This document shows positions 10,927 to 35,966 of a DNA stretch of 64,000 bases, in pieces. The DNA comes from an uncultured Eubacteriales bacterium (GTDB lineage: Bacteria > Acidobacteriota > Aminicenantia > Aminicenantales > Aminicenantaceae), in assembly GCA_964456985.1 (NCBI GenBank), contig CAYWDH010000005.1, forward strand, positions 17,247 through 81,246, given 5' to 3'. The notes beneath the pieces were generated by a model that was not told the DNA's origin, searched no databases, and saw only the letters and a list, made by a program, of their open reading frames with translations. The translations under genes were made by a program, and so were the position numbers. The first letter of the stretch is position 1. Each line of letters begins with the position of its first letter.

Positions 10927-10991
10927 AGCCCATGACTCTGGATCATGGAATCTGGATCCGAACATACGACCTACTGATTACGAATCAGTTG
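10927..10991 (-). pseudogene. Degenerate 3' fragment of tRNA-Thr(CGT), left att junction
   Basis: 25 bp cgacctactgattacgaatcagttg identical to 25583-25607 (anticodon arm, CGT); remnants of T-arm (ggatccgaac) and acceptor strand (agcccatg). Confidence 0.75.
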
Positions 10992-11084
10992 ATTTTTCCA
11001 GTTTTTTCCTCTGTTATATGGGGTAGTCAGTTAAAAGCCTTTTGCCAATTATAGCCGTAATTGGGCGTTTTTAGTCAAAATCTG
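10967..11084. repeat. Direct repeat A, copy 1 (att core plus P-arm)
   Basis: Aligns by eye to 25583-25700 (both 118 bp); includes gccaattatagccgtaatt(g/a)ggcgttttta(g/t)tcaaaatctg. Confidence 0.9.
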
Positions 11085-11173
11085 TGACATATTTGTGACA
11101 TGGGAGAGGTCTATTTTTTTCCAATTTGATTTATGATATATTATATACATCAGAAAAATGAAAGGGTGGTACT

Positions 11174-13192
11174 ATGACTGAACTTGTTTGGCAAGGCAAG
11201 TATAATAATGATTTAAAAACGTCTCCTGTACGTATAGCATTGCCATTCCAAACTATTGAGACAATAAATGAAAGTACTCAACAACGGCAAAAAACATTAG
11301 AATTGTTTGCTTTAGGAAAAGAAACTGATTGGCGGAATAGATTAATTTGGGGAGATAAAAAATATGTATTACCTTCCCTTATGCCGGAATTTGCTAATAA
11401 GTTAAAACTAATTTATATTGACCCTCCTTTTGATACAGGGGCAGATTTTTCTTTTAAAGCCAAAATACCTGATAATCCACAGACTGAGGAAGATGAAACA
11501 ACAACATTTATTAAACAACCAAGCATTATTGAACAAAAAGCCTACCGTGATACTTGGGGTAAAGGGTTACAATCATATCTTCAATGGTTTTATGAAACAA
11601 TTGCTCTTCTTTATGAACTGCTATCTGAAGATGGTAGTATTTATATTCATATTGATTGGCATATTGGACATTATGCAAAGATAATATTAGATGAAGTATT
11701 TGGATACGATTCATTTAAAGCTGAAATATGTTGGAAAAAAACTACTAAAACTACTTCCTTTAAAAACTATGGTTCAGAACATGATGTAATACTTTATTAT
11801 GTAAAGTCTCCAGATAATTATATTTTCAATCAGGTCTTTAAACCCTTGAAAAAGTCAGAATTATTAACTAAGTACAGATATTTAGAAAGGCCTAATGGTG
11901 AAATTATAACTCTTAACAAAGAACAAAGAGAAGGAAGAAATTTACCTGAAGGCAGACGATTAAGAGGTATCCCATTAACAAATATGAATCCTAATCGTCC
12001 AAATTTAAAATATGAATTCTTAGGTCACACAAGAGTATGGGCTGCGAGTAAAAAAAGGCTAATGAAATTATATAAGGAAGGGAGAATATTCCAAATAGGC
12101 AATAGCCTTCCAAAGAAAAAAGGATATTTAGACGAAAATAAAGGAGCAAAAGTCAACGATGTCTGGGATGATATTAATCCAGTTAATTCGCAAGCGAAAG
12201 AGAGGACTGGTTATGACACACAAAAACCTGAAAAGCTTTTAGAAAGAATTATCTCAGTTTCTACAAATCCAGGTGATTTAGTACTTGATTGTTTTGTTGG
12301 TTCTGGAACTACAGCAGCAATTTCAGAAAAATTGGAGAGGAGATGGATTGCTTGTGATTTGGGGCGTTTTGCAATTCATACCTCACGTAAACGCCTACTT
12401 GAACTTGACAATTTAAAACCTTTTGTAGTTCAAAATCTTGGAAAATATGAACTTCAACACTGGATAGATGCAAAATTTTCTCGTTCTAAAAATCGTTTCA
12501 TTCAGGAAAAAGCATATAAGAATTTTATAATTGAACTTTATCATGCTCAACCAATTACAGGTTACAATTATCTACACGGTATAAAATCAGGAAGGATGAT
12601 TCATGTTGGTTCAGTAGATGCTCCTGTTTCTCTTGGAGATATAAAAGCGTGTATAAAAGAATTTTGGAAATCAGTTGGTAAGTCTCCTGATATCAAAAAA
12701 AATGGAATTGATATTTTAGGGTGGGACTTTGCCTTTGAAATAAATGAGACTGCTAAACAAATTGCTTCTGAAAATAAAATTGACCTAAAATTTAGAAAAA
12801 TACCACGTGAAGTTTTAGATAAAAAAGCAGTTGAACAAGGAGATATAAAATTTTTTGAGATGGCATGCTTAGATATAAAACTCAATCAGAGTGGAAAAAA
12901 TGTTACCCTTAAGCTCAATAATTTTGTTGTTCCTCCTGATGATTTACCTAAGGATGTTCAAAAAAATATCACTCATTGGCGTCAATGGATTGATTATTGG
13001 GCAATTGATTGGAATTACAGAGATGATACTTTCCACAATGAATGGCAAAGCTATCGTACAAAAAATGACTCACAGATTGAATTGCAAGTTACTCATAACT
13101 ACAGTGAACTAGGCCAATACATGATATTAGTTAAGGTAATCGATATTCTCGGGAATGATACCACTAAAATGCTAAAAAATGATATAAAATAA
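11174..13192 (+). CDS. Type III restriction-modification methyltransferase (Mod-like, N6-adenine)
   Basis: IYIDPPF catalytic motif precedes DCFVGSGTT SAM-binding motif (beta class); TQKPEKLL; overlaps the helicase gene by 1 nt. Confidence 0.88.
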   Translation: MTELVWQGKYNNDLKTSPVRIALPFQTIETINESTQQRQKTLELFALGKETDWRNRLIWGDKKYVLPSLMPEFANKLKLIYIDPPFDTGADFSFKAKIPDNPQTEEDETTTFIKQPSIIEQKAYRDTWGKGLQSYLQWFYETIALLYELLSEDGSIYIHIDWHIGHYAKIILDEVFGYDSFKAEICWKKTTKTTSFKNYGSEHDVILYYVKSPDNYIFNQVFKPLKKSELLTKYRYLERPNGEIITLNKEQREGRNLPEGRRLRGIPLTNMNPNRPNLKYEFLGHTRVWAASKKRLMKLYKEGRIFQIGNSLPKKKGYLDENKGAKVNDVWDDINPVNSQAKERTGYDTQKPEKLLERIISVSTNPGDLVLDCFVGSGTTAAISEKLERRWIACDLGRFAIHTSRKRLLELDNLKPFVVQNLGKYELQHWIDAKFSRSKNRFIQEKAYKNFIIELYHAQPITGYNYLHGIKSGRMIHVGSVDAPVSLGDIKACIKEFWKSVGKSPDIKKNGIDILGWDFAFEINETAKQIASENKIDLKFRKIPREVLDKKAVEQGDIKFFEMACLDIKLNQSGKNVTLKLNNFVVPPDDLPKDVQKNITHWRQWIDYWAIDWNYRDDTFHNEWQSYRTKNDSQIELQVTHNYSELGQYMILVKVIDILGNDTTKMLKNDIK

Positions 13193-15759: not shown

Positions 15760-15864
15760 CTCTCAGTATTCTGACCATATTCTGATAGATTTTAGTAGAG
15801 GGGAAACTGGCGTCCCAGGTATGCTGGCTTCTCTAAATCTAATATTTGTAATTAAGGAGGAACA

Positions 15865-16311
15865 ATGAAGATTGAAGCAGAGAAATATGAAGTCATTTTT
15901 GGCTCTAATTTTATATCAGAATGTCCAAGAGTGATTAAATTAATTGGGAAAGGAATAAATAAACAAATCATGAGGTTCAGAGAAGGTGAAGATGGGAAAA
16001 TTCTATTTGATTGTACTGTTAAAGATAAAAAAGGAAATACAGTTACTAGGATTGCAAACAGCTTAACTCAGTATGTTATGAAAGGATATAAAACCCAAAT
16101 TACTGATGATGGGATTAAAGTAATAAATAAAAATACAGGAGATATTTGGTTAGAGTTCGCTTTTGTGAGCCCAAGAAAATTTAAGTTAAATGGGATTTTT
16201 TTCTTGCCAGGATACAAAATAGTTGCAACTGATGAATATTTAGAAATCAACACAAATAGGATTTCTAACTGTAAGTTTTCAAGCTGTTCTGCCGCGATAG
16301 GGCTTGTTTAG
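15865..16311 (+). CDS. Hypothetical protein
   Basis: RBS aaggagg; 148 aa with beta-rich pattern; no family recognised. Confidence 0.75.
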   Translation: MKIEAEKYEVIFGSNFISECPRVIKLIGKGINKQIMRFREGEDGKILFDCTVKDKKGNTVTRIANSLTQYVMKGYKTQITDDGIKVINKNTGDIWLEFAFVSPRKFKLNGIFFLPGYKIVATDEYLEINTNRISNCKFSSCSAAIGLV

Positions 16312-16329
16312 AGTTTTCCTTGAGGCAAG

Positions 16330-16370
16330 GGGAAGCCAGAGACTTTTTAACTCTGGCCTCCCAGATTTTT
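16330..16370 (+). terminator. Intrinsic terminator
   Basis: gggaagccagag...ctctggcctccc stem followed by a T-run. Confidence 0.65.
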
Positions 16371-16462
16371 AATAGACAACGTTACGCTGGAAAATAGCCT
16401 CATAATAGAGGACACACGAAAGTGGAAAAATTTCTCATAAAGGAACCAACAACTAGATTTTA

Positions 16463-17185
16463 ATGTCTCAGAAAAAATCAACAATAGAAATTAAATATTT
16501 ACTTGAAAGAAATACAGGAGTATTTAAGTTTGTTAATCATGACAAAAATGTAATTAAAATTGCTGTGAATCATGGCTGGCTTCCTGGAGCACGTTATACA
16601 CATTTGAGGAACATTAAAATATTTAATAGGTTAGGTTTTCTTGATATTGACTGGAAAAGATATGATTTCAAAAGGCATTTAAAGGCAACGAAAATGACTA
16701 GACCTTTTATGACAGTAGCACGAGATGTTCTAGATAAAAGAGAGCTAAATAAAATTATAGATGAAGCTTTCTCCTTACAAAAATATGCTAAAATAGTTAT
16801 AATAGTTCCGAAAGATAGAAAATTATCATGTCATATAAATAATATAATACCTAAGAATTTTTTATTGGGTTTTAGCGTTACCAGTTCATATGGGGAAACA
16901 AATATTGAACCTAAATACTTTAATAGGCCAGTCCATCTCCTCGGTGGTCGTCCAGAGGTTCAACGCAATCTTGCAAATTTGATGCCAGTAGTGTCATTTG
17001 ACAACAATAGATTCACTCTAGATGCTATCTATGGAGATTACTTTGATGGGCAAATATTTCGACCCCATCCTAATGGAGGTTATATAAGTTGCATTAGAGA
17101 TTCAATAATAAATATAAATAGATTGTGGGAGGATTACAAACCTCCTTATTGGGAATATTCTACAAACTTTAAATTGGAGACATAA
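16463..17185 (+). CDS. DUF6610-like protein with motifs reminiscent of a TGT-type TIM barrel
   Basis: GFLDIDWK, VARD, VHLLGG and SFDNN motifs; family recalled from memory, not searched. Confidence 0.55.
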   Translation: MSQKKSTIEIKYLLERNTGVFKFVNHDKNVIKIAVNHGWLPGARYTHLRNIKIFNRLGFLDIDWKRYDFKRHLKATKMTRPFMTVARDVLDKRELNKIIDEAFSLQKYAKIVIIVPKDRKLSCHINNIIPKNFLLGFSVTSSYGETNIEPKYFNRPVHLLGGRPEVQRNLANLMPVVSFDNNRFTLDAIYGDYFDGQIFRPHPNGGYISCIRDSIININRLWEDYKPPYWEYSTNFKLET

Positions 17186-17187
17186 TT

Positions 17188-17862
17188 ATGGACGACAAGG
17201 AAAAATTCCGTAGAGAATTTTTAATTAATATGTACAACCAAATGTTTAATGATATTAATAGGCATATTACTGTCACTTGGCAATCTATTACTACCTTTGT
17301 TGGTGCATTCGCTATTTTTGCCTTAGCAGAGAGAGAAATTATAAGTGTTGACATTGCTTCTACTTTAGTTGTCTTAATATGTGGCTGGCTCATAGCACAC
17401 GTCATTGACGCTTCATATTGGTATAATAGAAATCTCGCTATTATTGCAAACATAGAAAAGGAGTTTTTAGAAAAAGATGATTTATGGAAAATTCATTATT
17501 ATTTCGGTCAACACAGACCTAAAAATAGAATGATTCACCATCTAAAAATACAATTTTTTTTCGGACTAACCCTAGGATTATCTATACTAATTTTCCATTT
17601 TCTTACAATAGTAATTCCAAGTTTATATTTTTCATTAAGTTTAAAAAGTATAGATTTGAGTAAATGGTTTCCCTATATAGCTCTTATTGTTATTTCAATT
17701 TATATTGTTTGGGTGATAAGACATAGGTCATCAAGTTATAAGGAATTTCTAAAAAATTCACCTGGGATAAAGGTTGATACAACAGACATTATTTATGGAA
17801 AAGGTCATGCATTTGGATTTATGAGAAAAATCAAGAGAAAAAAAAATGAGGAAAGTATATAG
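17188..17862 (+). CDS. Multi-pass membrane protein, candidate defence effector
   Basis: About four hydrophobic segments; begins 2 nt after the preceding stop codon. Confidence 0.7.
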   Translation: MDDKEKFRREFLINMYNQMFNDINRHITVTWQSITTFVGAFAIFALAEREIISVDIASTLVVLICGWLIAHVIDASYWYNRNLAIIANIEKEFLEKDDLWKIHYYFGQHRPKNRMIHHLKIQFFFGLTLGLSILIFHFLTIVIPSLYFSLSLKSIDLSKWFPYIALIVISIYIVWVIRHRSSSYKEFLKNSPGIKVDTTDIIYGKGHAFGFMRKIKRKKNEESI

Positions 17863-17927
17863 AGGAATATAAATTCTATTTCCTAGTCAATGATGAAAAT
17901 ATATGAAAAGAAAATACATGTCTTGAA

Positions 17928-18137
17928 TTGAAAAAGGAGGAACTCATGAAAACAGATAAAAACGTTATCAATCAAATTGAAAAATTATTAGAGAGATATG
18001 AAATTGAAGTTGAGGAAAAAAGAAAGAATGGGATATTAAAGGACAAGACAGCATATACTTATCTCCGGCACGCCAATACTTTCGTTAGATGGTGCAAAGA
18101 TGATTTCATCCCAGGCGAAAGAAATATAAATAAATGA
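17928..18137 (+). CDS. Small hypothetical protein (integrase N-terminal SAM-like flavour)
   Basis: TAYTYLRHANTFVRWC motif. Start may instead be the ATG at 17946, which has RBS aggagg. Confidence 0.6.
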   Translation: MKKEELMKTDKNVINQIEKLLERYEIEVEEKRKNGILKDKTAYTYLRHANTFVRWCKDDFIPGERNINK

Positions 18138-18214
18138 GAGTTAAGGAAGCTCGAAAGGAATAATGGCTTTTGAGATAGGCGAAAGAAGAAACAGGAAATT
18201 CTCACTAAATTTAA

Positions 18215-18457
18215 TTAGCTTTTTAGCTTTTTTTCATAAGTTCGTATAAAGTCTATAAATTTAATATCCAAACCACGACAGATTGTCATAAGTTCAACAA
18301 TATCTAACCTTCGTTCGCATCTTTCATATTTACTAATATATGTCTGGTCAGTTCCAATCTTTTGGGCTAACTCTAGTTGAGTCAGATTTGCAGACTTTCT
18401 GAATTTTTTTAGGCATTCTACCAAAATTTTATATTCTTCCCTATGAATAGTCTTCAC
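18215..18457 (-). CDS. XRE-family HTH regulator
   Basis: RKSANLTQLELAQKIGTDQTYISKYERCERRLD; GTG at 18457 with an upstream AAGGA is preferred over the ORF-track start at 18514. Confidence 0.88.
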   Translation of the reverse strand: MKTIHREEYKILVECLKKFRKSANLTQLELAQKIGTDQTYISKYERCERRLDIVELMTICRGLDIKFIDFIRTYEKKLKS

Positions 18458-18505
18458 TTGGAATTTCCTTAAAAACCTTGGTGTTATTAAACATGTAAAT
18501 TCAAA

Positions 18506-18552
18506 ATATGCCAAAATAGCATATTGACGAGGGAAGCAAACAAAGTTATGCT
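18506..18552 (+). promoter_or_regulatory. Promoter with overlapping palindromic operator between the divergent XRE and lipoprotein genes
   Basis: TTGACG-N17-TATGCT at 18524-18552; ATATGC-N7-GCATAT at 18506-18524. Confidence 0.6.
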
Positions 18553-18637
18553 TAAAGCAAGCAAATTAATAATCCAGTTTAAAGAGGAAAATGAAGAAAG
18601 ATTTTATAAAAATCTTCATGAAAAAAGGAGGTAAGAA

Positions 18638-19129
18638 ATGAAAAAAGGAAAAGGTGGAACCTTCATCATTGTCTTTGTACTTTCACTCTCAGTGATTATG
18701 GCCGGATGTAACCAAGCGGAGAAAGAGCGAGAAGCTCAAATCAAGCAAAAGAAAAAAGAGAGGGCGGAGACTATAGATAGAATGGAGAGTTCATTTAGAG
18801 GCATCCTTCAAGGGAGCGGGTATATATTTGCAGATGTTAACTTGATAGAAGAGGAGGAGTTTATAAACTTCTATTTTTCGTTCTGGAAACGTATGGATAA
18901 AAATGAACTGTCCAAAACTATAGGGGCTTGTATTGCGATAGTTGGAGAAGCATCAAAAGATGAAAATTGGAAATGGGGAAGAGTTTATTTCAGATATGGA
19001 GATGCATACGAAGGGGAAAAATTGGGTTGGATTACTTCTTATAATTGTAGAGAGGCTCTTAAACATGAGGACAATCCAGAGCAAATGAGAAAGATAATAT
19101 CCGAGAATTGGCATGATTGGATAGATTAA
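18638..19129 (+). CDS. Putative lipoprotein
   Basis: RBS aggaggt; signal peptide with MAG-C lipobox. Confidence 0.72.
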   Translation: MKKGKGGTFIIVFVLSLSVIMAGCNQAEKEREAQIKQKKKERAETIDRMESSFRGILQGSGYIFADVNLIEEEEFINFYFSFWKRMDKNELSKTIGACIAIVGEASKDENWKWGRVYFRYGDAYEGEKLGWITSYNCREALKHEDNPEQMRKIISENWHDWID

Positions 19130-19130
19130 G

Positions 19131-19388
19131 AAAAGAGCCAAGGCACTGAGAAAAAAATGTCCATTTCTTAAAACGGATATACCACCTGCTTTATTCTATA
19201 ATTCTCGTTACCGATAAAAATAATTATGTCTACTTTTCATCAGCGTAACTTCTTTATTTACAACACTTCTTGATTTTACATAAAAAACGGGACGATTATC
19301 GTGAATTTTGTCCCAAAATGGGCAAAAAAACGGGTATATTTTCCCAATCAAGTCCAAAAATACGCCTATTTTTAGCCTTTTTGTCCCA
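19131..19388. repeat. Direct repeat B, copy 1 (~260 bp dif-containing module)
   Basis: Colinear but diverged similarity to 35710-35966, e.g. aaacggata..ccacctgc, gtgaattttg.cccaaaatgg, ttcccaa.caagtccaaaaa. Confidence 0.88.
19207..19234 (+). other. XerC/XerD dif-like recombination site
   Basis: GTTACCGATAA-AAATAA-TTATGTCTACT: 11-6-11 layout, ATAA/TTAT inner palindrome, XerD arm resembling TTATGTTAAAT. Confidence 0.7.
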
Positions 19389-19430: not shown

Positions 19431-19459
19431 TTGACAACCGCACTGTAATGACCTATTTT
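19431..19459 (+). promoter_or_regulatory. Sigma70-type promoter for the terminase module
   Basis: TTGACA-N17-TATTTT. Confidence 0.55.
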
Positions 19460-25552: not shown

Positions 25553-25558
25553 AAAAAG

Positions 25559-25611
25559 AGCCAGCGAGAGGATTCGAACCTCCGACCTACTGATTACGAA
25601 TCAGTTGCTCT
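25559..25611 (-). pseudogene. 3' 53 nt of tRNA-Thr(CGT), att junction; 5' half absent
   Basis: Reverse complement AGAGCAACTGATTCGTAATCAGTAGGTCGGAGGTTCGAATCCTCTCGCTGGCT gives anticodon arm (CGT), T-arm and acceptor 3' strand; no 5' acceptor strand adjacent. Confidence 0.9.
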
Positions 25612-25700
25612 TGCAGTGTTTTCCCTATGTTATATGGGTTAGCCAGAAAAAAAGTTTTAGCCAATTATAGCCGTAATTAGGCGTTTTTATTCAAAATCTG
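25583..25700. repeat. Direct repeat A, copy 2
   Basis: Matches 10967-11084. Confidence 0.9.
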
Positions 25701-25834: not shown

Positions 25835-26974
25835 GTGGATAATTCATTACTAAAATCGTATGATTGGGACTTTGTAGATACCTCTTCAAGTAATGGAGTT
25901 CACTCAATCCACTCATACCCTGCTAAATTTATTCCTCAAATACCTCGTCAGTTAATTAAATTATTTGCAAATGACAAGAGTAGAGTAATTCTTGATCCAT
26001 TTTGTGGCTCAGGAACTACGCTTGTTGAAGCAATTCTAAAGGGATTTGATGCATGGGGAATTGATATAAATCCAGTTTCTTGTCTTATTTCAAGGGTTAA
26101 AACTAGGCGTCTTCCAAATAATTTTCTATTTGTTTTGAGACAAGTGCTTGAAGAGGCAAAAGAGCATTATGCAAACAATACAGTCATACTTCCTGAAATC
26201 CCTCGATTAGACCATTGGTTTAAGAAAGATATTCAAAAAGCTGTTAAAGCTCTTTTAGATAAAATCAACTTGCAGGAGAGCATCCTAATAAAAGAAGGCC
26301 TACAGGTTGCTCTCTCGAAAATTTTGGTACAGGTTTCTAATCAGGAAAGTGATACGCGATATGCTGCTGTCGAAAAAAACGTAACCTATCTAGATGTTTT
26401 TGTTAAATTTGAGAAGGCCGCAGTGATTGTCTTCAATGAATTATCCAAAATATCAGATGACCTCTTTAAAAAGCTTGGCAAAGCCGTGGTGATAAATAAA
26501 GATATTATGAAGACCAAAGGCAAAGATTTGCCTGATAATATCGGTTTAATCATTACTTCACCCCCATATCCGAATGCATATGAGTACTGGCTTTATCATA
26601 AATATAGAATGTATTGGTTAGGAATGGACCCAATAAAAGTGAGAGAGAATGAAATAGGCGCTCGACCTCATTATTTTAAGAAAAATCATCAAGATGAAAG
26701 GGACTTTGAGAATCAGATGAGTAAATGTTTCGAACTTCTGTCACGAGTAATGATAAAGAATGGAAAGGCATGTTTTCTCGTAGGAGATTCTGTTATACAT
26801 GGGAAAACGATTGATAACTCTTTAATATTACATCGAGCGGCAGAGCCATATGGATTTAAAGTAATCGATGAAGTCGAACGCAATATCTTAGTCACACGAA
26901 AGACATTTAATCCAAAACATGGAAGATTAAAAAAAGAAACAATCTTGGTGTTTTCTCTTAATGAAAAGATATGA
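25835..26974 (+). CDS. DNA methyltransferase 1 (probable N4-cytosine)
   Basis: HSYPAKFIP, DPFCGSGTT and TSPPY motifs. Confidence 0.88.
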   Translation: MDNSLLKSYDWDFVDTSSSNGVHSIHSYPAKFIPQIPRQLIKLFANDKSRVILDPFCGSGTTLVEAILKGFDAWGIDINPVSCLISRVKTRRLPNNFLFVLRQVLEEAKEHYANNTVILPEIPRLDHWFKKDIQKAVKALLDKINLQESILIKEGLQVALSKILVQVSNQESDTRYAAVEKNVTYLDVFVKFEKAAVIVFNELSKISDDLFKKLGKAVVINKDIMKTKGKDLPDNIGLIITSPPYPNAYEYWLYHKYRMYWLGMDPIKVRENEIGARPHYFKKNHQDERDFENQMSKCFELLSRVMIKNGKACFLVGDSVIHGKTIDNSLILHRAAEPYGFKVIDEVERNILVTRKTFNPKHGRLKKETILVFSLNEKI

Positions 26975-28575
26975 AAGTAAAATTTCACTGGCACAATTAT
27001 AAATATTTCCCATATGAAAAAGACTTAGCTAGACGAGAATTGTTATCCTTAACAAAAACTAAGCCAAAACTAACAAAAGAGAATATAGCTGTAGAAGCTC
27101 CAAATAGCTGGAAAGATATTGCATTCAGAACTACCTATTTTCGGGAAGCGATAGCAGAAGATGGGACTATAATAATACCCCAACAAGCTCATTTTGAACT
27201 TACAGCAAATGGGGTATCTGAATCAGGGGACTTTGGTGGTTCATTATCCCTTAACCATCAGTCAACCAGATATTCTGCACATGGAATTCACGAATTCCGT
27301 GGAAAGTACAATCCACAGATAGTACGAGCAATAGGCAACATAGTTGGCATTAAACCTGGGGATTGGATTATTGACCCTTTTTGCGGGAGTGGGACGACGT
27401 TGTTAGAATCAGCCCATACTGGTTGGAACGCTGTCGGGATTGAATTGAATCCTCTTGGTGTAGAGATTACAAACGCTAAAATTGCCTCTATAAAAGTGCC
27501 TGAAGACATGTTAATTGCTGAAACTACAAAGTTAAAAGAGAATTTGAAAAAAAAATGGAATTCTTATTCTTTCGAAAAAGCATTTTTAAAAAAACAAATT
27601 GATTCATTACAAAAAACAAGTCTAGATAATATATTTCTCAATTGGAATTATCTTAAAAAGTGGTTTTCTGGGTCAGTACTAATACAAGTTGCATCTATAG
27701 TCGAAGAAATAAAGAAGCTTTCTCTTCCAGACATACAAAATATATACAAAATATTCTTGAGTGATATTTTGCGTCATGTTTCTTTTCAGGATCCTGGAGA
27801 TTTAAGAATAAGGCGAAGGAAACATCCTGCTCCCAATTATCCTGTAATACCATTATTTGTTGAATCCATTTCATCAAAAATAAAAAATATCATATTAGCC
27901 AGAAAATTCATTTCAGATGATAAAACTTATCAAAAAGCGATTCTTGAAGATACCCGATATATTTCAGAGAGAATCAATGAACATAAAATGCCTAAGGATA
28001 GTGAAATTTTTGATGCTGCTATTACAAGCCCTCCTTACGCTACTGCACTCCCATATATTGATACTTCTAGATTGAGCCTTACTCTGCTCAACTTTATAAC
28101 ATCAGATATTATTCATAAGACAGAAAAAAAATTGATTGGAAGTAGAGAAATTACCGAAAAAGAGAGGCAAAGTTATTATGAATCCATTGTCACTAATCGA
28201 AATAAACTTCCTAAAGAATGCATTAATTTGTGTAGAAGGCTAAGAAATGCAGTTAATTTTGAAACAGACGGATTTAGAAGAAAAAACGTTCCTGCTTTAC
28301 TTTATAAATATTTTGTAGATATGCAATTGACATTTAAACAGATGTCCAATCTCCTTCGTCTTCATGCGCCTTATGCAATTGTTATAGGAATGAATAGGAC
28401 AACACTTGGTGGTAAAGAATTTATTATTAATACCCCTCTGTTGTTGACTCGCCTGGCTGAAGAAAGCGGATTTTCATTAGAGAAAAAAATTAGATTGAAT
28501 ACATATCAGCGTTTTGACATTCATAAATTGAATTCAATTAGGGATGAAATATTGCTAATTTTAAGGAAAACATAG
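26971..28575 (+). CDS. DNA methyltransferase 2 (probable N4-cytosine) with N-terminal extension
   Basis: HEFRGKYNP, DPFCGSGTT and TSPPY motifs; ATGA overlap with MTase 1. Confidence 0.88.
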   Translation: MKVKFHWHNYKYFPYEKDLARRELLSLTKTKPKLTKENIAVEAPNSWKDIAFRTTYFREAIAEDGTIIIPQQAHFELTANGVSESGDFGGSLSLNHQSTRYSAHGIHEFRGKYNPQIVRAIGNIVGIKPGDWIIDPFCGSGTTLLESAHTGWNAVGIELNPLGVEITNAKIASIKVPEDMLIAETTKLKENLKKKWNSYSFEKAFLKKQIDSLQKTSLDNIFLNWNYLKKWFSGSVLIQVASIVEEIKKLSLPDIQNIYKIFLSDILRHVSFQDPGDLRIRRRKHPAPNYPVIPLFVESISSKIKNIILARKFISDDKTYQKAILEDTRYISERINEHKMPKDSEIFDAAITSPPYATALPYIDTSRLSLTLLNFITSDIIHKTEKKLIGSREITEKERQSYYESIVTNRNKLPKECINLCRRLRNAVNFETDGFRRKNVPALLYKYFVDMQLTFKQMSNLLRLHAPYAIVIGMNRTTLGGKEFIINTPLLLTRLAEESGFSLEKKIRLNTYQRFDIHKLNSIRDEILLILRKT

Positions 28576-28576
28576 A

Positions 28577-29785
28577 ATGATTATAGAAATAATACCTCAA
28601 ATGGAGACAGGAAACATACAGCGTCTTCGGGTTGGAGATTTCCTAAATCAAACCATCAGTAACAATGACTTTCTTAGCTTTAAATTTATTGTTGCGTATA
28701 TGAGATTCTCTGGTTGGGATAGACTCGGTGCTTCCATAGAGAATCTTTTGGATCGAGAAGGTCTGATTTCAGGGGTAGTCGGAATTGATTCAGGGATTAC
28801 AAGCCAGGAAGCTCTTAAAGCCTTAATGAGTGTTTCTAGCTCAAGTACGGTTTTTTATAGTACTTCGAACTTCATTTTTCATCCTAAGGTATACGCCATA
28901 AGTGGGAAGGAAAAGTCTATAATTCTAGTAGGAAGTGCAAACTTCACTCGAGATGGACTATTTAGAAACTTTGAGATAATGACTGCTATTCATTTGGATT
29001 TTAATGATAGTATTGATTTAGAAGTACACAATAGGTACGAGGTAATACTAGATGAATTATTAGATATCCATAATGCCAATGTGCAACCTCTAAATAGAGA
29101 GACATTAAGGCTTTTGGTCGAAAATAATTTAGTGAAACCTGAATCGGAAGGAATAGAGCCTGGAGAGAAAGGCTTACAACGAGGAAGACAAGGAGAGCTG
29201 CCCAACTCTCAAATAGGGGCTATGTTTCCCCCGCTTGGTATCCCTGTTGCTCCTCCCGGATATCGTAGTAGTGTTAGACCCACAAGGCAACCTCCTGGTC
29301 AAAGAAGGAAAGTGATAGTAGTCCCTCCACAGGTCTCAGGAGAAGCTCGAACATTTATAATGAAGCTATCTGAATTTGATTCTAGTCATCGAAGCGGGAT
29401 TTCTGGAACAGCAGAGGTACTCATCCCTCATAGAGCCATCCAATTTTTTCCAGAATTGTCACATACTACAAGAAAATATCCAGACGCAGTGTTTGATGTT
29501 GTTTTACGTACTCCCAGCGGACCTGAAAGGCGCAGATTTAGACTTTGGTATTATGAATTTAGGGCCACAGGGTCAAAAATAGATGAATATCGTTTGCGCA
29601 TGGATAAAGAGACAATTGATATAAGTTCGCCTGGTGGAGGAGACTTGTTAGTGATTAATAAGTTACCTGAGGGAAGCGATCCAGAATTTGAAGTTACAAT
29701 ATTGCCTCAAACTGACCCAACATATCCAGCGTTCTTTGAACTTTGTACGCAAGAATCTCAAGGAAAGAGATGGGGCATTGCTTAA
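28577..29785 (+). CDS. Phospholipase-D-family restriction endonuclease (BfiI/NgoFVII-like)
   Basis: FHPKVY...VGSANFT HxK nuclease motif, Pro/Gln-rich linker, separate C-terminal domain; coupled to two MTases. Confidence 0.8.
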   Translation: MIIEIIPQMETGNIQRLRVGDFLNQTISNNDFLSFKFIVAYMRFSGWDRLGASIENLLDREGLISGVVGIDSGITSQEALKALMSVSSSSTVFYSTSNFIFHPKVYAISGKEKSIILVGSANFTRDGLFRNFEIMTAIHLDFNDSIDLEVHNRYEVILDELLDIHNANVQPLNRETLRLLVENNLVKPESEGIEPGEKGLQRGRQGELPNSQIGAMFPPLGIPVAPPGYRSSVRPTRQPPGQRRKVIVVPPQVSGEARTFIMKLSEFDSSHRSGISGTAEVLIPHRAIQFFPELSHTTRKYPDAVFDVVLRTPSGPERRRFRLWYYEFRATGSKIDEYRLRMDKETIDISSPGGGDLLVINKLPEGSDPEFEVTILPQTDPTYPAFFELCTQESQGKRWGIA

Positions 29786-30118
29786 AAGATAATATTGGGC
29801 TTCCTTAATATGGGGTTTAATTAGATATAAGCTTTTTTCAATACAAGCAAACTATTCTGAAATATTCTATACAGTCTATTTGGGCGATTGGAAGCCAGAA
29901 ACTCTGAAGCTATTGCTTCCCGAATGCAGATTCCGGTCCATTCCGGACACTGATTCCGAATTAATCCGGCCACTAAATCCGGAGCATTCCGGTCACGGAT
30001 TCCGGATTAATCCGGCCATTTTTTACTGGGTTTCGGAATCATTGATCAGCGAAGCGGCGCTGGATAACTTGATGAGAATAAGCCATCATGTCTCTTTTAA
30101 AAAAGAGAGGAGAACAAG

Positions 30119-31651
30119 ATGGCCAAAAAGAGGTTATCCATGCGAAAAATCAGAGAAGTACTCAGGTTAAAACATTCGGGGCTTTCGATTCGGGCGATTG
30201 CCCGGGCCTGTTCGATAGGGAGAGAGACGGTCCGGGAGTATTTAAACCGGGCTTCAGAGGCAGGGCTTAGCTGGCCTCTTCCTGATGAGCTTTCCGATAA
30301 GGATCTGGAACAGCAGCTTTTTCCTGCGGTTATAAAGATCTATGGACAGAGGAGCAGTCCTGACTGGGTTTTGATCCATCAGGAACTGAAGAAAAAAGGG
30401 GTGACCCGCCGGCTGCTGTGGGAAGAGTACCGGCAAGAAGAAAAAGATTATTACCGTTACTCCCAGTTTTGCGAGCTCTACCGGCGATGGGCAAAAAGCT
30501 TGTCTCCTCCCATGCGGCTTCCTCACAAGGCTGGGGAGAAGCTGTTTGTTGACTATGCCGGCCTGACAATGTGTTACACGGATCGCTCCACTGGGGAGGA
30601 AAAGAAGGCGTATATTTTTGTAGCCATGTGGGGAGCCAGCAATTACACCTATGCTGAAGCCCATGCTGGCCAGACCCTCACTTCCTGGATCAGCGGCCAT
30701 ATTCGGGCGTTTGAATATTTTGGAGGGGTTCCGGTCCTTTTAGTACCGGATAACACCAAGACCGGGGTGACATCAGCCTGTTACTATGAGCCGGATCTCA
30801 ATCCCACTTATCAGGAATTTGCGCAGCATTACGGAACCGCAGTGCTTCCCACAAGGGTCAACCGGCCTAAAGACAAAGCCAAAGTGGAAAAAGGTGTACA
30901 GACGGTCGAATACTGGTTGATTGCTCCCCTGAGAAAGAGACAGTTTTTCAGTATCGCTGAGATCAACGATGCTCTCAAAGATAGACTCGAGGAGCTTAAT
31001 ACCCGGGAGATGCAGCATTTAAAAAAGAGCCGCAGAGAGATGTTCGAGGAGTTGGATCGACCCGTGCTCCGGCCTCTGCCTCGAACCGCTTTTGAGGTGG
31101 CGGAATGGAAAAGAGCCAAAGTGAATATTGATTATCATGTGGAATTTAAAAAGCATTACTACTCAGTGCCCTACAAGTTGATTAAAAAATATGTGGATAT
31201 CCGGGCCACAGACCAGGTGATCGAAGTTTTTTACAACCGGGAGCGGATCTCTTCGCACAAACGAGATGACACCCCGGGTCGGCATTCCACTCATCCTGAG
31301 CATATGCCGGAATCTCATCGGCAATATGCGGAGTATCATCCTGAGAGGTTCATCAAATGGGCCAAACGTATCGGAGATCTTACAGAGCAGCTGGTAAATA
31401 CCATCTTCTCATCCCGGCCTCATCCTGAACACGGGTACCGTACCTGCCTGGGGCTTATGCGCCTTGAGTCACGTTATGGCAAAGAGCGGCTGGAGGCCGC
31501 TTCGAAGCGGGCTCTTTTTTTTGGGCTTTATTCCTTTCGAGGGGTTAAAAATATCCTGGAGGCTGGATTGGATAAACTATCATTGGAGGAATCAACCGGT
31601 GTGGGCAGTAAAGCACACGCCAATGTCCGGGGAACAGATTACTACTCCTGA
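30119..31651 (+). CDS. istA: IS21 transposase IstA
   Basis: N-terminal HTH, FVDYAG, VPDNTKTGV and KDKAKVEKGV DDE motifs. Confidence 0.95.
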   Translation: MAKKRLSMRKIREVLRLKHSGLSIRAIARACSIGRETVREYLNRASEAGLSWPLPDELSDKDLEQQLFPAVIKIYGQRSSPDWVLIHQELKKKGVTRRLLWEEYRQEEKDYYRYSQFCELYRRWAKSLSPPMRLPHKAGEKLFVDYAGLTMCYTDRSTGEEKKAYIFVAMWGASNYTYAEAHAGQTLTSWISGHIRAFEYFGGVPVLLVPDNTKTGVTSACYYEPDLNPTYQEFAQHYGTAVLPTRVNRPKDKAKVEKGVQTVEYWLIAPLRKRQFFSIAEINDALKDRLEELNTREMQHLKKSRREMFEELDRPVLRPLPRTAFEVAEWKRAKVNIDYHVEFKKHYYSVPYKLIKKYVDIRATDQVIEVFYNRERISSHKRDDTPGRHSTHPEHMPESHRQYAEYHPERFIKWAKRIGDLTEQLVNTIFSSRPHPEHGYRTCLGLMRLESRYGKERLEAASKRALFFGLYSFRGVKNILEAGLDKLSLEESTGVGSKAHANVRGTDYYS

Positions 31652-31749
31652 AGGGTAAAAGTTTTACATCATTTAAAGAAAACGCGTTATACGGCATCTG
31701 AGAGCCTGTTTTTTTTAAGCTTTAAAAACACAGAAAAAAGGAGATAATC

Positions 31750-32508
31750 ATGCTTCATCAACCCATTATGGATAAACTATTCGCGCTTAAACTCAATGGA
31801 ATGCTGGAAGGACTGCGGGAACAGATGGAAAGCCCGCAGTACAGGAAACTGAGTTTTGATGAGCGTTTCGGTCTTCTTCTGGACCGAGAATGGGACCTTC
31901 GGCAGAAGAGAAAACTGCACAGGAGAATGCGAGTGGCCCGGTTTAGAGAACAGGCTGCTATAGAGGATCTTGAAATATCCGCTAAAAGAGGGCTGGATCG
32001 CAAACAAGTTCTATACATGGCAGAGTGCAACTGGATCAGAGAAAAGCTCAACACACTCATAACCGGTCCTACAGGAGCCGGGAAGACCTATCTGGCCTGT
32101 GCTCTTGGAAATGCCGCCTGTCGAAATGGACTGACGGTCCGTTATTTTCAGCTCTCCCGGCTGCTTGAGATATTAAAACTGGCTCGTGCAGATGGATCCT
32201 ATCCCAAAATGTTAGACCAGATCGCTAAATGCCAGCTGCTTATCCTGGATGACTGGCTGCGGAATCGTCTCACAGAAACACAAACCAATGATATCCTCGA
32301 GATCTTCGAGGACAGATATAATCATGGCTCCATCATGGTGGCTACTCAGATCCCAGTGGAAGAATGGCATGAACAGTTTGCCAATCCCACTTTTGCCGAT
32401 GCCATCATGGACAGAATCGTTCACAATGCCTATAGACTGGAATTAAAGGGTGAATCTATGCGAAAACGAAAATCTAACTTGACCCATTCCGGTCACTCGG
32501 AGGTATAA
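31750..32508 (+). CDS. istB: IS21 helper ATPase IstB
   Basis: GPTGAGKT Walker A, LLILDDW Walker B, ADAIMDRIVHNA. Confidence 0.95.
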   Translation: MLHQPIMDKLFALKLNGMLEGLREQMESPQYRKLSFDERFGLLLDREWDLRQKRKLHRRMRVARFREQAAIEDLEISAKRGLDRKQVLYMAECNWIREKLNTLITGPTGAGKTYLACALGNAACRNGLTVRYFQLSRLLEILKLARADGSYPKMLDQIAKCQLLILDDWLRNRLTETQTNDILEIFEDRYNHGSIMVATQIPVEEWHEQFANPTFADAIMDRIVHNAYRLELKGESMRKRKSNLTHSGHSEV

Positions 32509-32809
32509 TGATAGACCAGCGTCGCTTCGCTCCGGAATGTGGCCGGATTAAATCGGAATCGGTGGCCGGATACGCCGGAATAAGCACCGAAGAAGAAATG
32601 ACGGCAATGTCGGAAATGCATCCCACTTAGATAGGCGGTTTATAAATAGAGATATTCTCATCTCAGGAAAAGAAATAACTATAAATAACTAAATTTCATT
32701 TAAATTGTGATGCCCTCTTTATCTTGACAGCTAATTAAACTAAGAATACATTTATAGTAAGAAAATAAGAGCAAAAAGGTCAAACTTAATAAATATATAC
32801 TAAAAAAAA

Positions 32810-34105
32810 ATGAATGAATATCATAAAAAGAAAAACCAAGATATTAAGGATATTCCCTCACTTAGGAAATTAAAAGACAATGTAAATGGAATGCATATGC
32901 TTTCAAAAACCATAATATTTCTTAAAAAACTTGGAATAAGAGACACAAAACTTTTAAATGCTTTGAATAAATTTCCCGAATTAGAAAAGAAAACAAAGGA
33001 GATTATTGAAATGCCAGACCGTTTCAATAATCATTTTTCAAAAAATGGTTGGATTGCATATGAATCCATGAATTTTGAACTAATGAAAGAAACAGTGAAT
33101 CTAGCTGATAAGGGAAAACTTGAAGAAGCAGAAGCTATATTGGTTGAGCAATTTGATGAGCCTAATCTCGATTTTCATCTTATGAAAATGAAGGCTATTC
33201 AAGAATATCAAATAAGGGAAGACCTTATAAAAAAGGCAATGACAGATTATTTATTCAAACGTTATCATGCCTGCATTCCAGTTATCCTTAGCCTGATTGA
33301 TGGAATAGTCAATGATATTGAACAAAAAGGCTTTTTTGCCCAAGGAGTTAATTTGACTGCTTGGGATTCTATTGCTGCACATAACTCAGGAATACAAGAA
33401 CTCAAAAAAATACTAAATAAAAAACGCAAGAAAACTACTACTGATACAATTACAGTTCCTTATAGGCATGGAATACTCCATGGTCGTGATTTAGGATATG
33501 ATAATAAGATTGTTGCTTCGAAAACATGGGCAGCTCTTTTTGCTATTCGTGACTGGGCTCTTGCAGTGAGAAACAAAGGTGAGAACAAGAAGAATGAAGA
33601 AGAGGCGAGAAGCATTCTTGATTCATTGAAAATAATAGCTGAAACAAAATCTTTAAATAGACAAATTAAAACATGGAAACCGAGGAACATTGAGATAGGT
33701 AGAGATTGTCCTCGATCTGGAAATTCAAAAGATTATGAAGAGGGAAGTCCCGAGAGAGCCATGGTAGAATTCATGCAATATTGGAATAATTTTAACTATG
33801 GTTGGATGGCTAAGATGATAAAGACATTTCGCGATGAACCAATTAAAAAATTTGCAGGAGACATCCGTGAATTATTCCAAGCTCATAACTTGAAAAGTTT
33901 CTCATTAATAAGGATATCTGATTTTGCACCCGCAGCTGCTGAGATTGAAGTTGAGTTAAGTATAATGACGGATGAAAAAGAAATAAAAAAAAGTTCCAAC
34001 GTCAGATTAATTCACGAAAATAAACAAGGAAATCCTCAAGTAATGGGTGCTAATAATGGCATTTGGAAAATTCCTATTTATTCAATATATTCACTTGTAA
34101 GTTAG
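32810..34105 (+). CDS. Hypothetical protein with HEPN-like Rx4H motif
   Basis: LIDGIVND followed by YRHGILHG; TTGACA-N17-TACATT promoter at 32724-32752. Confidence 0.6.
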   Translation: MNEYHKKKNQDIKDIPSLRKLKDNVNGMHMLSKTIIFLKKLGIRDTKLLNALNKFPELEKKTKEIIEMPDRFNNHFSKNGWIAYESMNFELMKETVNLADKGKLEEAEAILVEQFDEPNLDFHLMKMKAIQEYQIREDLIKKAMTDYLFKRYHACIPVILSLIDGIVNDIEQKGFFAQGVNLTAWDSIAAHNSGIQELKKILNKKRKKTTTDTITVPYRHGILHGRDLGYDNKIVASKTWAALFAIRDWALAVRNKGENKKNEEEARSILDSLKIIAETKSLNRQIKTWKPRNIEIGRDCPRSGNSKDYEEGSPERAMVEFMQYWNNFNYGWMAKMIKTFRDEPIKKFAGDIRELFQAHNLKSFSLIRISDFAPAAAEIEVELSIMTDEKEIKKSSNVRLIHENKQGNPQVMGANNGIWKIPIYSIYSLVS

Positions 34106-34133
34106 AATCAAAAATTAGTGTCTTTTTTAGAAA

Positions 34134-35729
34134 ATGACAAGAAAAAAGCCAAAGGTTCCATACACTCCTATCAGTAAACATAAGTTAAAGAAAGGACTAT
34201 TAAAGCCGCCCTTAAGTCAACTTAACATTAAACAAATAGACTGGCATAGAGATTTGTTACCTGAGCATCTTTGGATTGAATGCCTATCAATTACATATGT
34301 CCAAAAAGAGTGGCAAAATTTATATAGTGAATTTCTTGATGCTTTAGATGCATACGTTCCTGAAGATAAAATTATTTTTGGTTTTATAACAGATTTTGGA
34401 TTAATCCCGTCTGATAAGAGAAAAGATTTCTTGAAATATAATGAAAAATTAGTATATAGAGCATTTTACAAGCCAATAGGAAGGATCATTACGTTCTATC
34501 CAGAAGCTCCATGTTATTGGCTTTTACAGAAAAAATATTTGGATATTGAAAGACCAGTTAATTCTAATGTTGAGTTAGGAAAGTTGAGTAAATCGGTCTT
34601 GAGACTTATTCCAGGTAAAGATAAGCATGCAGGACATATAAGAGCAATGCCCATTTCTAGAGCAATTAAGCATAAAAAAATATATTTCAAGAGGGGAATG
34701 AAAATCGCCGACCTTCTCCCTAAATACCCATCTGGATGTGACGAAGAAGAAAAATATCATGTTCAGTCGCAAGCTAGAAACATAATGAATACCTTTTTTC
34801 TACAAAAAGATATATATTTGAATAGAAAATGGCCAAAATATTTTTGGAATAAAAATTTGGAGTTAGTACCATGTTCTCCTCATAAAATTCAAGCAAATAA
34901 AGAGAATGCGTTTGGTGAAGATGAAACCAATAAACTTTACAAACTTATTGATAGAAACTCCAATATTGTAAAAGATTACCTAAAGAAAATTTCTTTTAAT
35001 TATAAGTATGATTTGTACAATACAGAGCGTGACGAGGTTCTTCTTGGGCTTTTTGGCAGACTTACTCGTATTTATGTTCTAATTTTATCTAATCCACCTC
35101 TTTGGTCAAGGGATATTGCGGGGATTTTGCTACGATGCCTAGCAGAGACTGCGATTACATTTGCATATCTAACTAAAAAAGGTTCCAAGGATGAACTGAG
35201 AGATTTTAAGGCATATGGAGAAGGGAAAGAAAAGCTTCTGATGTTACACCTTCAAGATACTTATCCAGATAAAAAATCATTAGAAGGAAAGAATTCTGAA
35301 GAAATTGCTGAGGAAATGGGATGGGGTTTTTCGCCAGAATTAATGGATATTGAATTGTCAGATTGGACAAAAAAATCCACAAGAGAGTTAGCATTTTCTG
35401 TAGGTCTTGAAGATATTTATAGACTGGTTTTTGACCCTTCAAGCTCAGATGTTCATGGCACTTGGATTAGCCTAAAAAAGTCTAACCTAACACGATGTGT
35501 TCAGCCTTTACATAGGTTTCATCAAATGCCTCAATATATCGAACCACCAATATTTGTAAATACGATAGATGCAGTTCAACGAGTTTATCAAAAGTGCGTA
35601 GAAATAGGTAATCGACACTTAGACTTTCCTAAAATGAAGCATAAACCTGAAAAAGTTGTCTCATTCCTAAATACAGTTAAAAAAAGATACATAGATTTCG
35701 ATAAGAGCAAAAAGAACAAAGGCACTTAG
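34134..35729 (+). CDS. DUF5677-like (HEPN-superfamily-like) domain protein
   Basis: C-terminal ILLRCLAETAITFAYL ... SSDVHG pattern. Confidence 0.6.
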   Translation: MTRKKPKVPYTPISKHKLKKGLLKPPLSQLNIKQIDWHRDLLPEHLWIECLSITYVQKEWQNLYSEFLDALDAYVPEDKIIFGFITDFGLIPSDKRKDFLKYNEKLVYRAFYKPIGRIITFYPEAPCYWLLQKKYLDIERPVNSNVELGKLSKSVLRLIPGKDKHAGHIRAMPISRAIKHKKIYFKRGMKIADLLPKYPSGCDEEEKYHVQSQARNIMNTFFLQKDIYLNRKWPKYFWNKNLELVPCSPHKIQANKENAFGEDETNKLYKLIDRNSNIVKDYLKKISFNYKYDLYNTERDEVLLGLFGRLTRIYVLILSNPPLWSRDIAGILLRCLAETAITFAYLTKKGSKDELRDFKAYGEGKEKLLMLHLQDTYPDKKSLEGKNSEEIAEEMGWGFSPELMDIELSDWTKKSTRELAFSVGLEDIYRLVFDPSSSDVHGTWISLKKSNLTRCVQPLHRFHQMPQYIEPPIFVNTIDAVQRVYQKCVEIGNRHLDFPKMKHKPEKVVSFLNTVKKRYIDFDKSKKNKGT

Positions 35730-35966
35730 AAAATGATGTTTATTTTCACAAACGGATACTCCACCTGCATCTTTCTATAATGTTAGAAACCGATAAGACG
35801 GATTATGTCAACTTTTTATCGACTAAACTCCTTTATTTGCAACAACTCTTGATTTTTCTAAAAAAAGGGACGATTTTTGTGAATTTTGCCCCAAAATGGC
35901 CAAAAAAACGGCCATATTTTCCCAACCAAGTCCAAAAACATCTCTATTTTTTGCCTTTTTATCCCA
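35710..35966. repeat. Direct repeat B, copy 2
   Basis: Colinear similarity to 19131-19388; homology stops at tccca (35966). Confidence 0.88.
35786..35813 (+). other. XerC/XerD dif-like recombination site
   Basis: GAAACCGATAA-GACGGA-TTATGTCAACT; 11-6-11 layout with a XerD arm close to canonical dif arms. Confidence 0.8.

Follow-up and report, generated by a model that had tools for sequence, protein, structure and literature searches.

The window analysed here is a 64-kb stretch of DNA (C5:17247-81246) from the metagenome-assembled genome of an uncultured sediment bacterium, which is distributed over 102 contigs and is 86% complete. Its region 10.9–36.0 kb is, in our opinion, probably an array of two small integrative elements from one family, which has undergone decay. 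Members of this family combine a tyrosine integrase targeting the 3' ends of tRNA genes, a private large terminase subunit (TerL) encoded behind a protein in the position of the small subunit (TerS), and replication functions, with no genes for capsid, portal or tail. Element 1 (~10918-25611) is complete. Element 2 (25547-35966) retains only the attachment (att) core, the left arm, the cargo and the first 258 nt of a regulatory module. A preliminary description of this DNA had noted that the order repeat A, cargo, repeat B occurs twice (10967-19388 and 25583-35966), and had explained it by tandem sister elements sharing one chassis; the observation was confirmed, and the interpretation found partial support.

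Two Repeats Framing Unrelated Cargo

A repeat search of the window, followed by blastn against the whole genome to extend the repeats, placed repeat A at 10954-11084 and 25570-25700 (131 nt, 83% identity in the repeat search; 132 nt, 85%, E 8e-35 in blastn). The longest exact match between the two copies, A1 and A2, is their common 25-nt core CGACCTACTGATTACGAATCAGTTG at 10967-10991 and 25583-25607. Repeat B was found at 19281-19388 and 35859-35966 in the repeat search and was extended by blastn to 258 nt (80%, E 1e-61), so that the doubled order of repeats was borne out exactly where it had been placed. Gene families were assigned with Pfam, PHROG, PADLOC and NCBIfam, and tRNAs were searched for with ARAGORN and Rfam. 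Judging from Pfam and PADLOC, the genes lying between A and B in element 1 (slot 1) and in element 2 (slot 2) share nothing, just as the preliminary description claimed. The coordinates of all features are collected in Table 1.

Element 1 carries a tRNA-Thr(CGT) anticodon-arm core at both of its ends, with a core-to-core spacing of 14,616 bp. Slot 1 opens with the genes of a Type III restriction–modification (R-M) system, Mod and Res, which overlap by one base and were recognised by PADLOC as MTase_III and REase_III. Three accessory genes follow (15865..17862), none of which matched a PADLOC or NCBIfam model. The second of them encodes a DUF6610 protein; this family has been renamed DpdA4 and is counted among the DNA 7-deazaguanine transglycosylases, a group that originally came to light in archaeal viruses (10.1101/2023.04.13.536721). 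The DpdA4-family gene is a neighbour of both the Type III R-M system and the gene for an orphan protein of 224 amino acids (aa). The subsequent region, 17928..19129, possibly represents the regulatory edge of what we call the chassis. Past repeat B, element 1 runs on into this chassis, consisting, as had been described, of a small open reading frame (ORF), TerL, a winged-HTH protein, an AT-rich palindrome region, an integrase fused to an HTH_17 domain and a tRNA-like segment. The TerL family profile matches the TerL nuclease domains 5tge and 5m1f. The winged-HTH gene, together with the AT-rich palindrome region, may be regarded as a candidate origin, and the integrase gene ends 5 nt into the tRNA-like segment. 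Among the scanned ORFs of element 1, neither Pfam nor PHROG detected capsid, portal, protease, head-tail adaptor/connector or tail families.

Element 2 is organised differently. Its copy of the repeat-cargo-repeat order stops at repeat B, leaving it devoid of the promoter, TerS, TerL, origin, integrase and right att, so that a reading as two full elements had to be abandoned. No second copy of the chassis exists elsewhere in the genome; the TerL and integrase relatives on contigs C3 and C14 belong to other elements (see below). Slot 2 encodes an R-M system of its own, bearing out the claim that each slot holds a different type: two methyltransferases (PADLOC MTase_II for both) accompany a PLD-family nuclease with weak matches to both Pfam PLDc_2 and RE_NgoFVII, an assemblage best described as Type II-like. 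An insertion sequence of the IS21 family interrupts this cargo, with istA and istB (Pfam rve, Mu-transpos_C_2 and IstB_IS21, the last at 4e-67) lying between terminal inverted repeats that include multiple repeats (I1, I2, D11) and coincide with a local rise in G+C content. Finally, the DUF5677 protein, one of the candidates for abortive infection, matches PADLOC DitA (9e-38) over residues 12-503, i.e., over nearly its whole length. The loss of the chassis from copy 2, the absence of a complete tRNA from the window and the IS21 element within slot 2 are all additions to the preliminary description.

Repeat A Is an Attachment Site with a Putative Integrase Arm

Neither ARAGORN nor Rfam detected a complete tRNA in the 64-kb window. 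The sole real tRNA-Thr(CGT) of the genome is found at C31:15918-15990, between two large ORFs and with no element adjoining; i.e., it is vacant. Positions 25547-25611 of the window are identical (65/65) to the 3' 54 nt of this very tRNA plus 11 nt downstream of it. The A1 core is a more degenerate segment of the same kind, with an internal duplication of ~14 nt in its T-arm part. To the right of the core, A1 and A2 have in common an arm of ~90 nt, which is also conserved in relatives (genomes and loci designated G and L, respectively): L005/G176, G004, G205, G194 and G009. Of 96 genomes searched from the bacterial family, 7 contain the palindrome of this arm, and the reversed control never gave a match; a motif scan of IMG/VR with it gave no match.

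The distribution of the hexamer GTGACA deserves particular attention, since it occurs only eight times on this strand in 64 kb. One pair begins at 11084 and 11095 in the A1 arm, and another at 25467 and 25479 in the 3' end of the integrase gene, where CTGTGACA-N4-CTGTGACA (25465-25484) would constitute the P-arm repeats of element 1. Both pairs lie ~117 nt from the core, one on each side. Contig C14 of this genome carries a canonical element at tRNA-Arg(CCT), and there, too, the motif is found on each of the two arms. We infer from this arrangement that the GTGACA pairs are arm-type integrase sites. Because these predicted sites flank the core, repeat A is the att core together with the left (P') arm of the element. 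As for the proposed targeting of tRNA-Thr, the att segment carried by repeat A agrees with it, but the array itself is not at a tRNA gene.

Repeat B as a Probable Regulatory Region of the Packaging Operon

Repeat B represents the initial 258 nt of a 590-nt non-coding stretch located upstream of the packaging genes. When this stretch was aligned with the corresponding regions of L005 and L054, the closest relatives (TerL 67% identical), the blocks AAACGG, TAAAAAAnGGGA, TTGTCCCAAAATG and ATCCCA proved to be shared. Downstream of these blocks, the promoter-like site of element 1 has counterparts in both relatives: TTGACA...TATTTT in L005 and TTGACA...TAGATT in L054. The B2 copy is cut immediately upstream of the promoter position. 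Such a pattern makes it more likely that repeat B is a cis-regulatory region upstream of the packaging-operon promoter than that it is a dif module, as had been supposed. A and B are probably retained because both act in cis, and they thereby frame a slot in which genes vary freely. The concept of a fixed cargo slot holds insofar as the region from the att arm to the packaging genes is variable and contains defence genes in L005 and L011; its bounding module, on the other hand, is not supported as dif. As for variable cargo between the repeats elsewhere, the A arm is accompanied by other genes in G004 and G205, and a DNA search of the same 96 genomes found B only in this genome. A scan of IMG/VR with the B core motif also gave no match.

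Junctions and the Host Site

In six relatives, three of which are 92-95% identical in the flanking genes, the intact site reads as follows: a TPR-CHAT gene (+), a 192-aa sigma-like gene, a 240-aa gene, a TPR-CHAT paralogue of ~980 codons (-) and an S58 peptidase. At the right end of the array, the switch from B to host DNA takes place inside the 13-nt CCTTTTTATCCCA (35954-35966); the B1 counterpart of this segment is CCTTTTTGTCCCA, and the intact paralogues have CCTTTTTATCCCA. The right end is thus a microhomology deletion junction inside a host gene and not an att site. The deletion took away what remained of element 2 together with ~3.7 kb of host sequence, namely the genes for sigma and anti-sigma and ~780 codons of the paralogue; no copy of this host sequence was found elsewhere in the assembly. 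It is worth mentioning that in the relatives, the TPR-CHAT gene and its inverted paralogue (7155-10906 and 35823-36533 of the window) flank a sigma/anti-sigma-like pair, which is lost here. At the left end, host homology ends at ~10876-10881, ~40 nt before the tRNA-like segment; in blastn with 10000-11010, the matches to G005 and G004 stop at 869-882 of this query. A remnant of a third integrase is possible to the left of A1, where a local alignment is weak and gap-rich and overlaps an A-rich sequence conserved in the host.

A location of the array at the tRNA-Thr locus was considered and rejected, as none of the six relatives has a tRNA at this site. The array may have arrived at its non-tRNA site by secondary-site integration followed by flanking deletions, or by illegitimate insertion of an array fragment. 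Just to the right of the S58 peptidase, the window also contains four tandem paralogues of 310-326 aa (38142-42054), repeated with a period of ~1 kb and 71-84% identical in DNA (D1-D6); the first of these genes has no Pfam match.

Table 1. Features of the array and its flanks (positions in the window; strand given where applicable).
Feature	Position	Strand	Evidence or remarks
Host TPR-CHAT gene, left flank	7904..10906	+	Pfam CHAT 1.5e-63
A1 core, degenerate 3' segment of tRNA-Thr(CGT)	10918..10991	-	38 nt at 92% to C31 tRNA
Left (P') arm, element 1	10992..11110		Palindrome CAATTATAGCCGTAATTGGGCG 11046-11067; CTGTGACA-N3-TGTGACA 11082-11100
Type III Mod	11174-13192	+	PADLOC MTase_III 4e-101; Pfam N6_N4_Mtase
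Type III Res	13192-15759	+	PADLOC REase_III 7e-20; Pfam ResIII, RE_endonuc
148-aa orphan	15865-16311	+	No family
DUF6610 protein	16463-17185	+	Pfam DUF6610 4e-50
224-aa orphan	17188-17862	+	No family
69-aa ORF	17928-18137	+	76% (aa) and 85% (nt) conserved in G004 sister behind different genes
HTH_3 regulator	18215-18514	-	HTH_3 1e-11; PADLOC Control_protein 1.5e-10
163-aa ORF	18638-19129	+	Possible regulatory edge of chassis
B1, non-coding module	19131..19388		GGGAC/GTCCC repeats; 8-6-7 palindrome 19210-19230
Promoter-like site TTGACA-17-TATTTT	19431..19459	+	10 of 12; precedes packaging genes
154-aa protein, TerS position	19717-20181	+	Homologues directly upstream of TerL in 37 loci
TerL	20328-21920	+	phrog_2 5e-24; Pfam TerL_ATPase
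200-aa conserved chassis protein	22054-22656	+	Homologues after TerL in L005, L054, L009, L073, L113
146-aa winged-HTH protein	23131-23571	+	Weak match, PHROG replication initiation O-like 5e-6
Candidate origin: winged-HTH gene and the AT-rich palindromic, repeat-containing stretch behind it	23131..24085		Repeat search; palindrome 23612-23667
Integrase with N-terminal Xis/AlpA-type HTH_17	24131-25552	+	Phage_integrase 2e-37, HTH_17 6e-14, phrog_1 1e-78
A2 core, att common to both elements (right for element 1, left for element 2)	25547..25611	-	65-nt identity to tRNA-Thr(CGT) region
Left (P') arm, element 2	25612..25700		Palindrome 25662-25683; GTGACA repeats degenerate
Two N6/N4 DNA methyltransferases and PLD-family nuclease	25835..29785	+	PADLOC MTase_II 7e-123, 1e-108
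IS21-family insertion sequence, ends approximate	29930..32583	+	istA 30119-31651, istB 31750-32508
431-aa protein and 531-aa DUF5677 protein	32810..35729	+	431 aa: no family; DUF5677 3e-20
B2, truncated module copy	35710..35966		Palindrome 35789-35809; ends in CCTTTTTATCCCA 35954-35966
Host TPR-CHAT paralogue, N-terminal 197 codons, reading on into B2	35823..36533	-	~980 codons in relatives

Relatives of the Elements

Homologues of TerL are numerous: at least 1709 were found at E <= 1e-10, almost all of them unnamed and mostly from sediment and subsurface contigs. At least 356 contigs of the Joint Genome Institute carry the TerL family. Within the order of the host, it is present in 39 of 201 genomes, and a single genome may contain as many as seven copies. 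An alignment of 40 sequences revealed at least 50 invariant residues, including Walker A and acidic residues. IMG/VR holds only three relatives of TerL (42-61% identity), and a single-protein scan of IMG/VR with TerL itself gave no match. In the literature on MJ0330 (the Pfam name for a part of the TerL family) and on terminase-carrying satellites, we found no description of this family.

Eleven relatives with a total of 122 ORFs could be bounded, with 8-15 kb between their att repeats. All eleven possess an integrase and TerL; an excisionase is found in six, a primase/helicase in five and a polymerase/primase in four, and a PHROG tally of these elements returned no capsid or portal family. 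Genes for primase, helicase or AAA_25 proteins are also known from relatives. None of the relatives that fill a whole contig has a terminal overlap that would speak for circularity. Relatives are found beside complete tRNA genes. The geometry of element 1 recurs in L054, where the integrase gene runs into an opposite-strand tRNA, in this case tRNA-Met. In L103, L097, L109, L118, L071 and L007, a tRNA-Arg is located at the cargo end, and in the first three of these, a tRNA-like repeat is also present beyond the integrase.

Two further elements reside in the same genome. A ~12-kb member of the family occupies a tRNA-Met on contig C3 (~112.9-125.0 kb, minus strand), comprising three orphan cargo genes, a primase-like protein of 604 aa, a TerS-position protein, TerL (50% identical) and an integrase. 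The element on contig C14 (~18.8-28.3 kb, minus strand; ~9.4 kb) sits at tRNA-Arg(CCT), lacks TerL and encodes an HTH_17::integrase that is 47% identical; one of its cargo genes codes for a 582-aa protein with an HTH at the N terminus. We would also like to comment on the ends of L005. At 16085-16140, a large serine recombinase gene ends inside a 3' fragment resembling tRNA-Arg(ACG) that has no 5' part, and at the left end, a tRNA-like acceptor/T-arm minihelix precedes the A arm; the left and right ends do not form a repeat pair. A genome search assigns L005/G176 to the same family as the genome of the window, and the public title 'uncultured Eubacteriales bacterium' is probably a mislabel.

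Closed genomes provide the clearest picture of how such elements are arranged. In G041, the order is fragment, element, tRNA-Arg(TCG), element, fragment, and both elements are complete. The two TerL genes are 84% identical in DNA, and the regions from att to the packaging genes are unrelated, which makes this genome an instance of the anticipated stacking of sister elements with unrelated slots. The G041 slots contain mostly unknown genes along with an AAA_25 helicase, and no obvious defence genes. At a locus orthologous to the C31 site, G205 has a fragment with arm, 3.4 kb, a second fragment with arm, 2.8 kb and a complete tRNA-Thr(CGT), with no integrase or TerL. Judging by their layout, these units are chassis-less in the manner of element 2 but stand at the true target. 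One arm-headed unit of L171 (G205:C1:3681000-3700999, reverse 586-6860) contains a 1041-aa kinase-TPR protein; the other contains a CorA-like transporter set, with genes resembling ordinary chromosomal ones. In G004, from the same genus, a 53-nt exact tRNA fragment precedes an arm that is 91% identical to A1; it is followed by five small ORFs that differ from those here, after which comes a 69-aa ORF homologue (85% nt identity). Since the arm and the 69-aa homologue enclose different genes, the same chassis lineage apparently carries other slot genes in G004.

Among the closest relatives, defence genes in the slot include DUF4238-Pers in L005/G176 (7e-49) and, in L011, an MmeI-like R-M enzyme with AbiEii. 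The PADLOC name DUF4238-Pers may derive from Rousset et al. 2022. Family tallies by pseudo-alignment were partly informative, as their top-25 lists were dominated by redundant R-M models.

Alternative Explanations

The preliminary description, taken in full, envisaged two complete sisters stacked at tRNA-Thr with B as a dif/Xer slot boundary, serving, for example, multimer resolution or Xer-mediated swapping of cargo. We consider this unlikely. It has in its favour the imperfect 8-6-7 palindrome ACCGATAA-N6-TTATGTC, whose arms are kept in B1 and B2 while the central hexamers differ; its right half, TTATGTCAACT, is present in L054 too. The palindrome loosely resembles the 11-6-11 dif layout of the E. 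coli consensus. However, it is missing altogether from the homologous region of L005, and the 86%-complete genome contains neither a further copy nor a chromosomal dif of this type, only chance-level matches with two mismatches. Moreover, neither of the array junctions falls on the palindrome, B outside the palindrome aligns with sequence upstream of a promoter, and copy 2 has no chassis. One might also suppose that we are dealing with remnants of ordinary prophages stripped of their structural genes and not with a dedicated capsid-less family. Prophages, too, are characterised by TerL, an integrase and att sites in tRNA genes; among 111 proteins encoded upstream in the relatives, one matches Phage_capsid, and the viral contig L048, 84 kb in length, encodes a TerL relative with 42% identity. 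Yet the compact layout of the bounded elements, always with integrase and TerL and with no capsid or portal in the tally, speaks against such an origin; the invariant TerL residues point to selection, not decay, and the family is present in many genomes, sometimes repeatedly in one. An origin from ordinary prophages is, therefore, quite unlikely.

A third possibility is that there is no physical tandem and that the junction of integrase, A2 and arm is the attP of an excised circle, or a strain variant, misthreaded during assembly. The fragmented metagenomic origin of the genome would permit such an error, and the tRNA-Thr locus was assembled as an empty attB with A2 being attP-like, a pairing that corresponds to the excised state. 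Independent assemblies, for which we used Logan contigs from two runs (SRR14802572, SRR14802573), match 18359-22402, 25582-30666, 31561-35025 and the window from 11053 on, which supports the array; their ends, however, coincide with the shared repeats, A2 and the A1 arm being the exact break points. Against an artefact, A1/A2 and B1/B2 are only 80-85% identical and, hence, not collapsible repeats. The arm following A2 belongs to cargo 2, so that a simple circle of element 1 cannot give this junction. The B2-host join lies at a 13-nt microhomology, which is below assembler k-mers, and the host genes that should stand here are missing from the entire assembly. Finally, tandem and chassis-less arrays of the same family occur in single-contig genomes. 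Altogether, an assembly artefact appears very unlikely.

The array reading, which we prefer, has its own weak points, and several results weigh against it. As the Logan contigs end at the shared repeats, none of the four array junctions is confirmed independently, and the source genome is metagenome-assembled. In look-ups of exact proteins, the methylase, the 431-aa protein and Mod led to Logan contigs stopping at the shared repeats, and the integrase, the truncated TPR protein and the DUF5677 protein were not on record. No complete tRNA adjoins the array, and its site is not a tRNA site; thus, at least one step in its history took place without the integrase. On the left, the junction (10876-10935) is ambiguous, the gap there being weakly similar both to host intergenic DNA and to the end of the integrase gene. 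Pfam and PHROG recognised no primase or helicase in element 1. The TerS-position protein has no match in Pfam, PHROG or NCBIfam, and its all-helical AlphaFold model (mean confidence, pLDDT, 73) has no fold match in the PDB; the TerS label is, hence, positional only. We found neither a helper phage nor a circular or virion-borne form of the element, and a defence activity of the slot genes is suggested by homology.

Comparison with Known Systems

Tycheposons of Prochlorococcus are integrated repeatedly, pushing older elements inward, and tandem junctions have been observed among them (Hackl et al., 10.1101/2020.12.28.424599). By description, not by sequence, our elements resemble them in many respects: both are tRNA-targeting elements with tyrosine recombinases, partial tRNA flanks and integration and replication modules combined with cargo, and both stack and leave remnants that build islands. 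A subset of tycheposons similar to phage-inducible chromosomal islands (PICIs) has packaging genes, which is a further likeness. However, the packaging gene there is terS or that of a capsid protein, never TerL, and these PICI-like tycheposons are reported without extra cargo, whereas here packaging and defence cargo meet in one element.

PICIs themselves encode terS only, while capsid-forming PICIs (cfPICIs) possess terL plus capsid, portal, protease and head-tail adaptor; satellites in tandem are known as well (de Sousa et al. 2023, PMC10085698). Element 1 shares with both an integrase, putative replication functions, a packaging module, a size of ~10-15 kb and accessory or defence genes in set positions. 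Compared with the PICI definition of SatelliteFinder, it has the integrase but no recognised primase-replicase, and its packaging module is not of the terS-only kind; as for the regulator, HTH_17 (AlpA/Xis-type) is fused to the integrase, and a separate HTH_3 protein is encoded at 18215-18514. Of the cfPICI components, terL is present, and capsid, portal, protease and head-tail adaptor/connector are not, so that element 1 has TerL without any head gene, next to a TerS-position protein without a family match. Of the hallmarks of P4-like satellites, psu, sid, delta and alpha-primase found no Pfam or PHROG match in element 1, and the host phylum differs. Element 1 thus falls outside the definitions of PICIs, cfPICIs and P4-like satellites, yet, by analogy, it would work like a satellite with a defence hotspot. 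Since TerL-only packaging is outside the definitions of PICIs, cfPICIs, P4-like satellites and PLEs, such elements are likely missed by current detectors.

With regard to the hotspot, P2 prophages and P4-like satellites are said to carry defence hotspots (Rousset et al. are reported to have described these in 2022), in which a fixed slot between conserved parts houses different anti-phage systems in sister elements, as we observe here. The difference is that the slot of our elements lies between the left att arm and the regulatory region of the packaging operon.

A Possible Life Cycle and Its Implications

Keeping in mind all of the above, we might outline the following scenario. The integrase would insert a circular element into a tRNA gene, with the element supplying a new tRNA 3' end beside the integrase gene. 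A later sister could integrate at the site regenerated in this way, creating a stack, and subsequent deletions would strip off the chassis so that arm-plus-cargo units remain. The R-M systems and other slot genes would protect both the host and the element. Upon infection by a helper phage, the element would replicate, and its own terminase would package it into the capsids of the helper.

It is tempting to suppose, though only tentatively, that capsid-less elements with a private complete terminase represent a widespread class of phage satellites, of which we found no description, among sediment bacteria of the Aminicenantes type and others. The slot next to att would then serve as an exchangeable defence cassette, bordered by two cis-acting modules, namely the att arm and the regulatory region of the packaging operon. 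The chassis would be shed regularly, and the arm-plus-cargo units left over would build up islands of defence genes and cargo, both at tRNA genes and, following illegitimate events, at other places.

Overall, our analysis provides a working map of a satellite-like family, including its putative integrase sites, the control of its packaging operon and its defence-gene slot, in a host phylum without a cultured phage-host system. It also points to a gap in the detection of satellites, present definitions of which leave out a TerL-only packaging module. Besides R-M systems of Types III and II, the slot offers a series of defence candidates: the DpdA4-like transglycosylase and its membrane partner, the DUF5677 protein resembling DitA and its 431-aa partner, and several orphans. 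Together, the decayed second copy in our array and the chassis-less units in a closed relative suggest a route by which defence genes may be permanently deposited in bacterial chromosomes.

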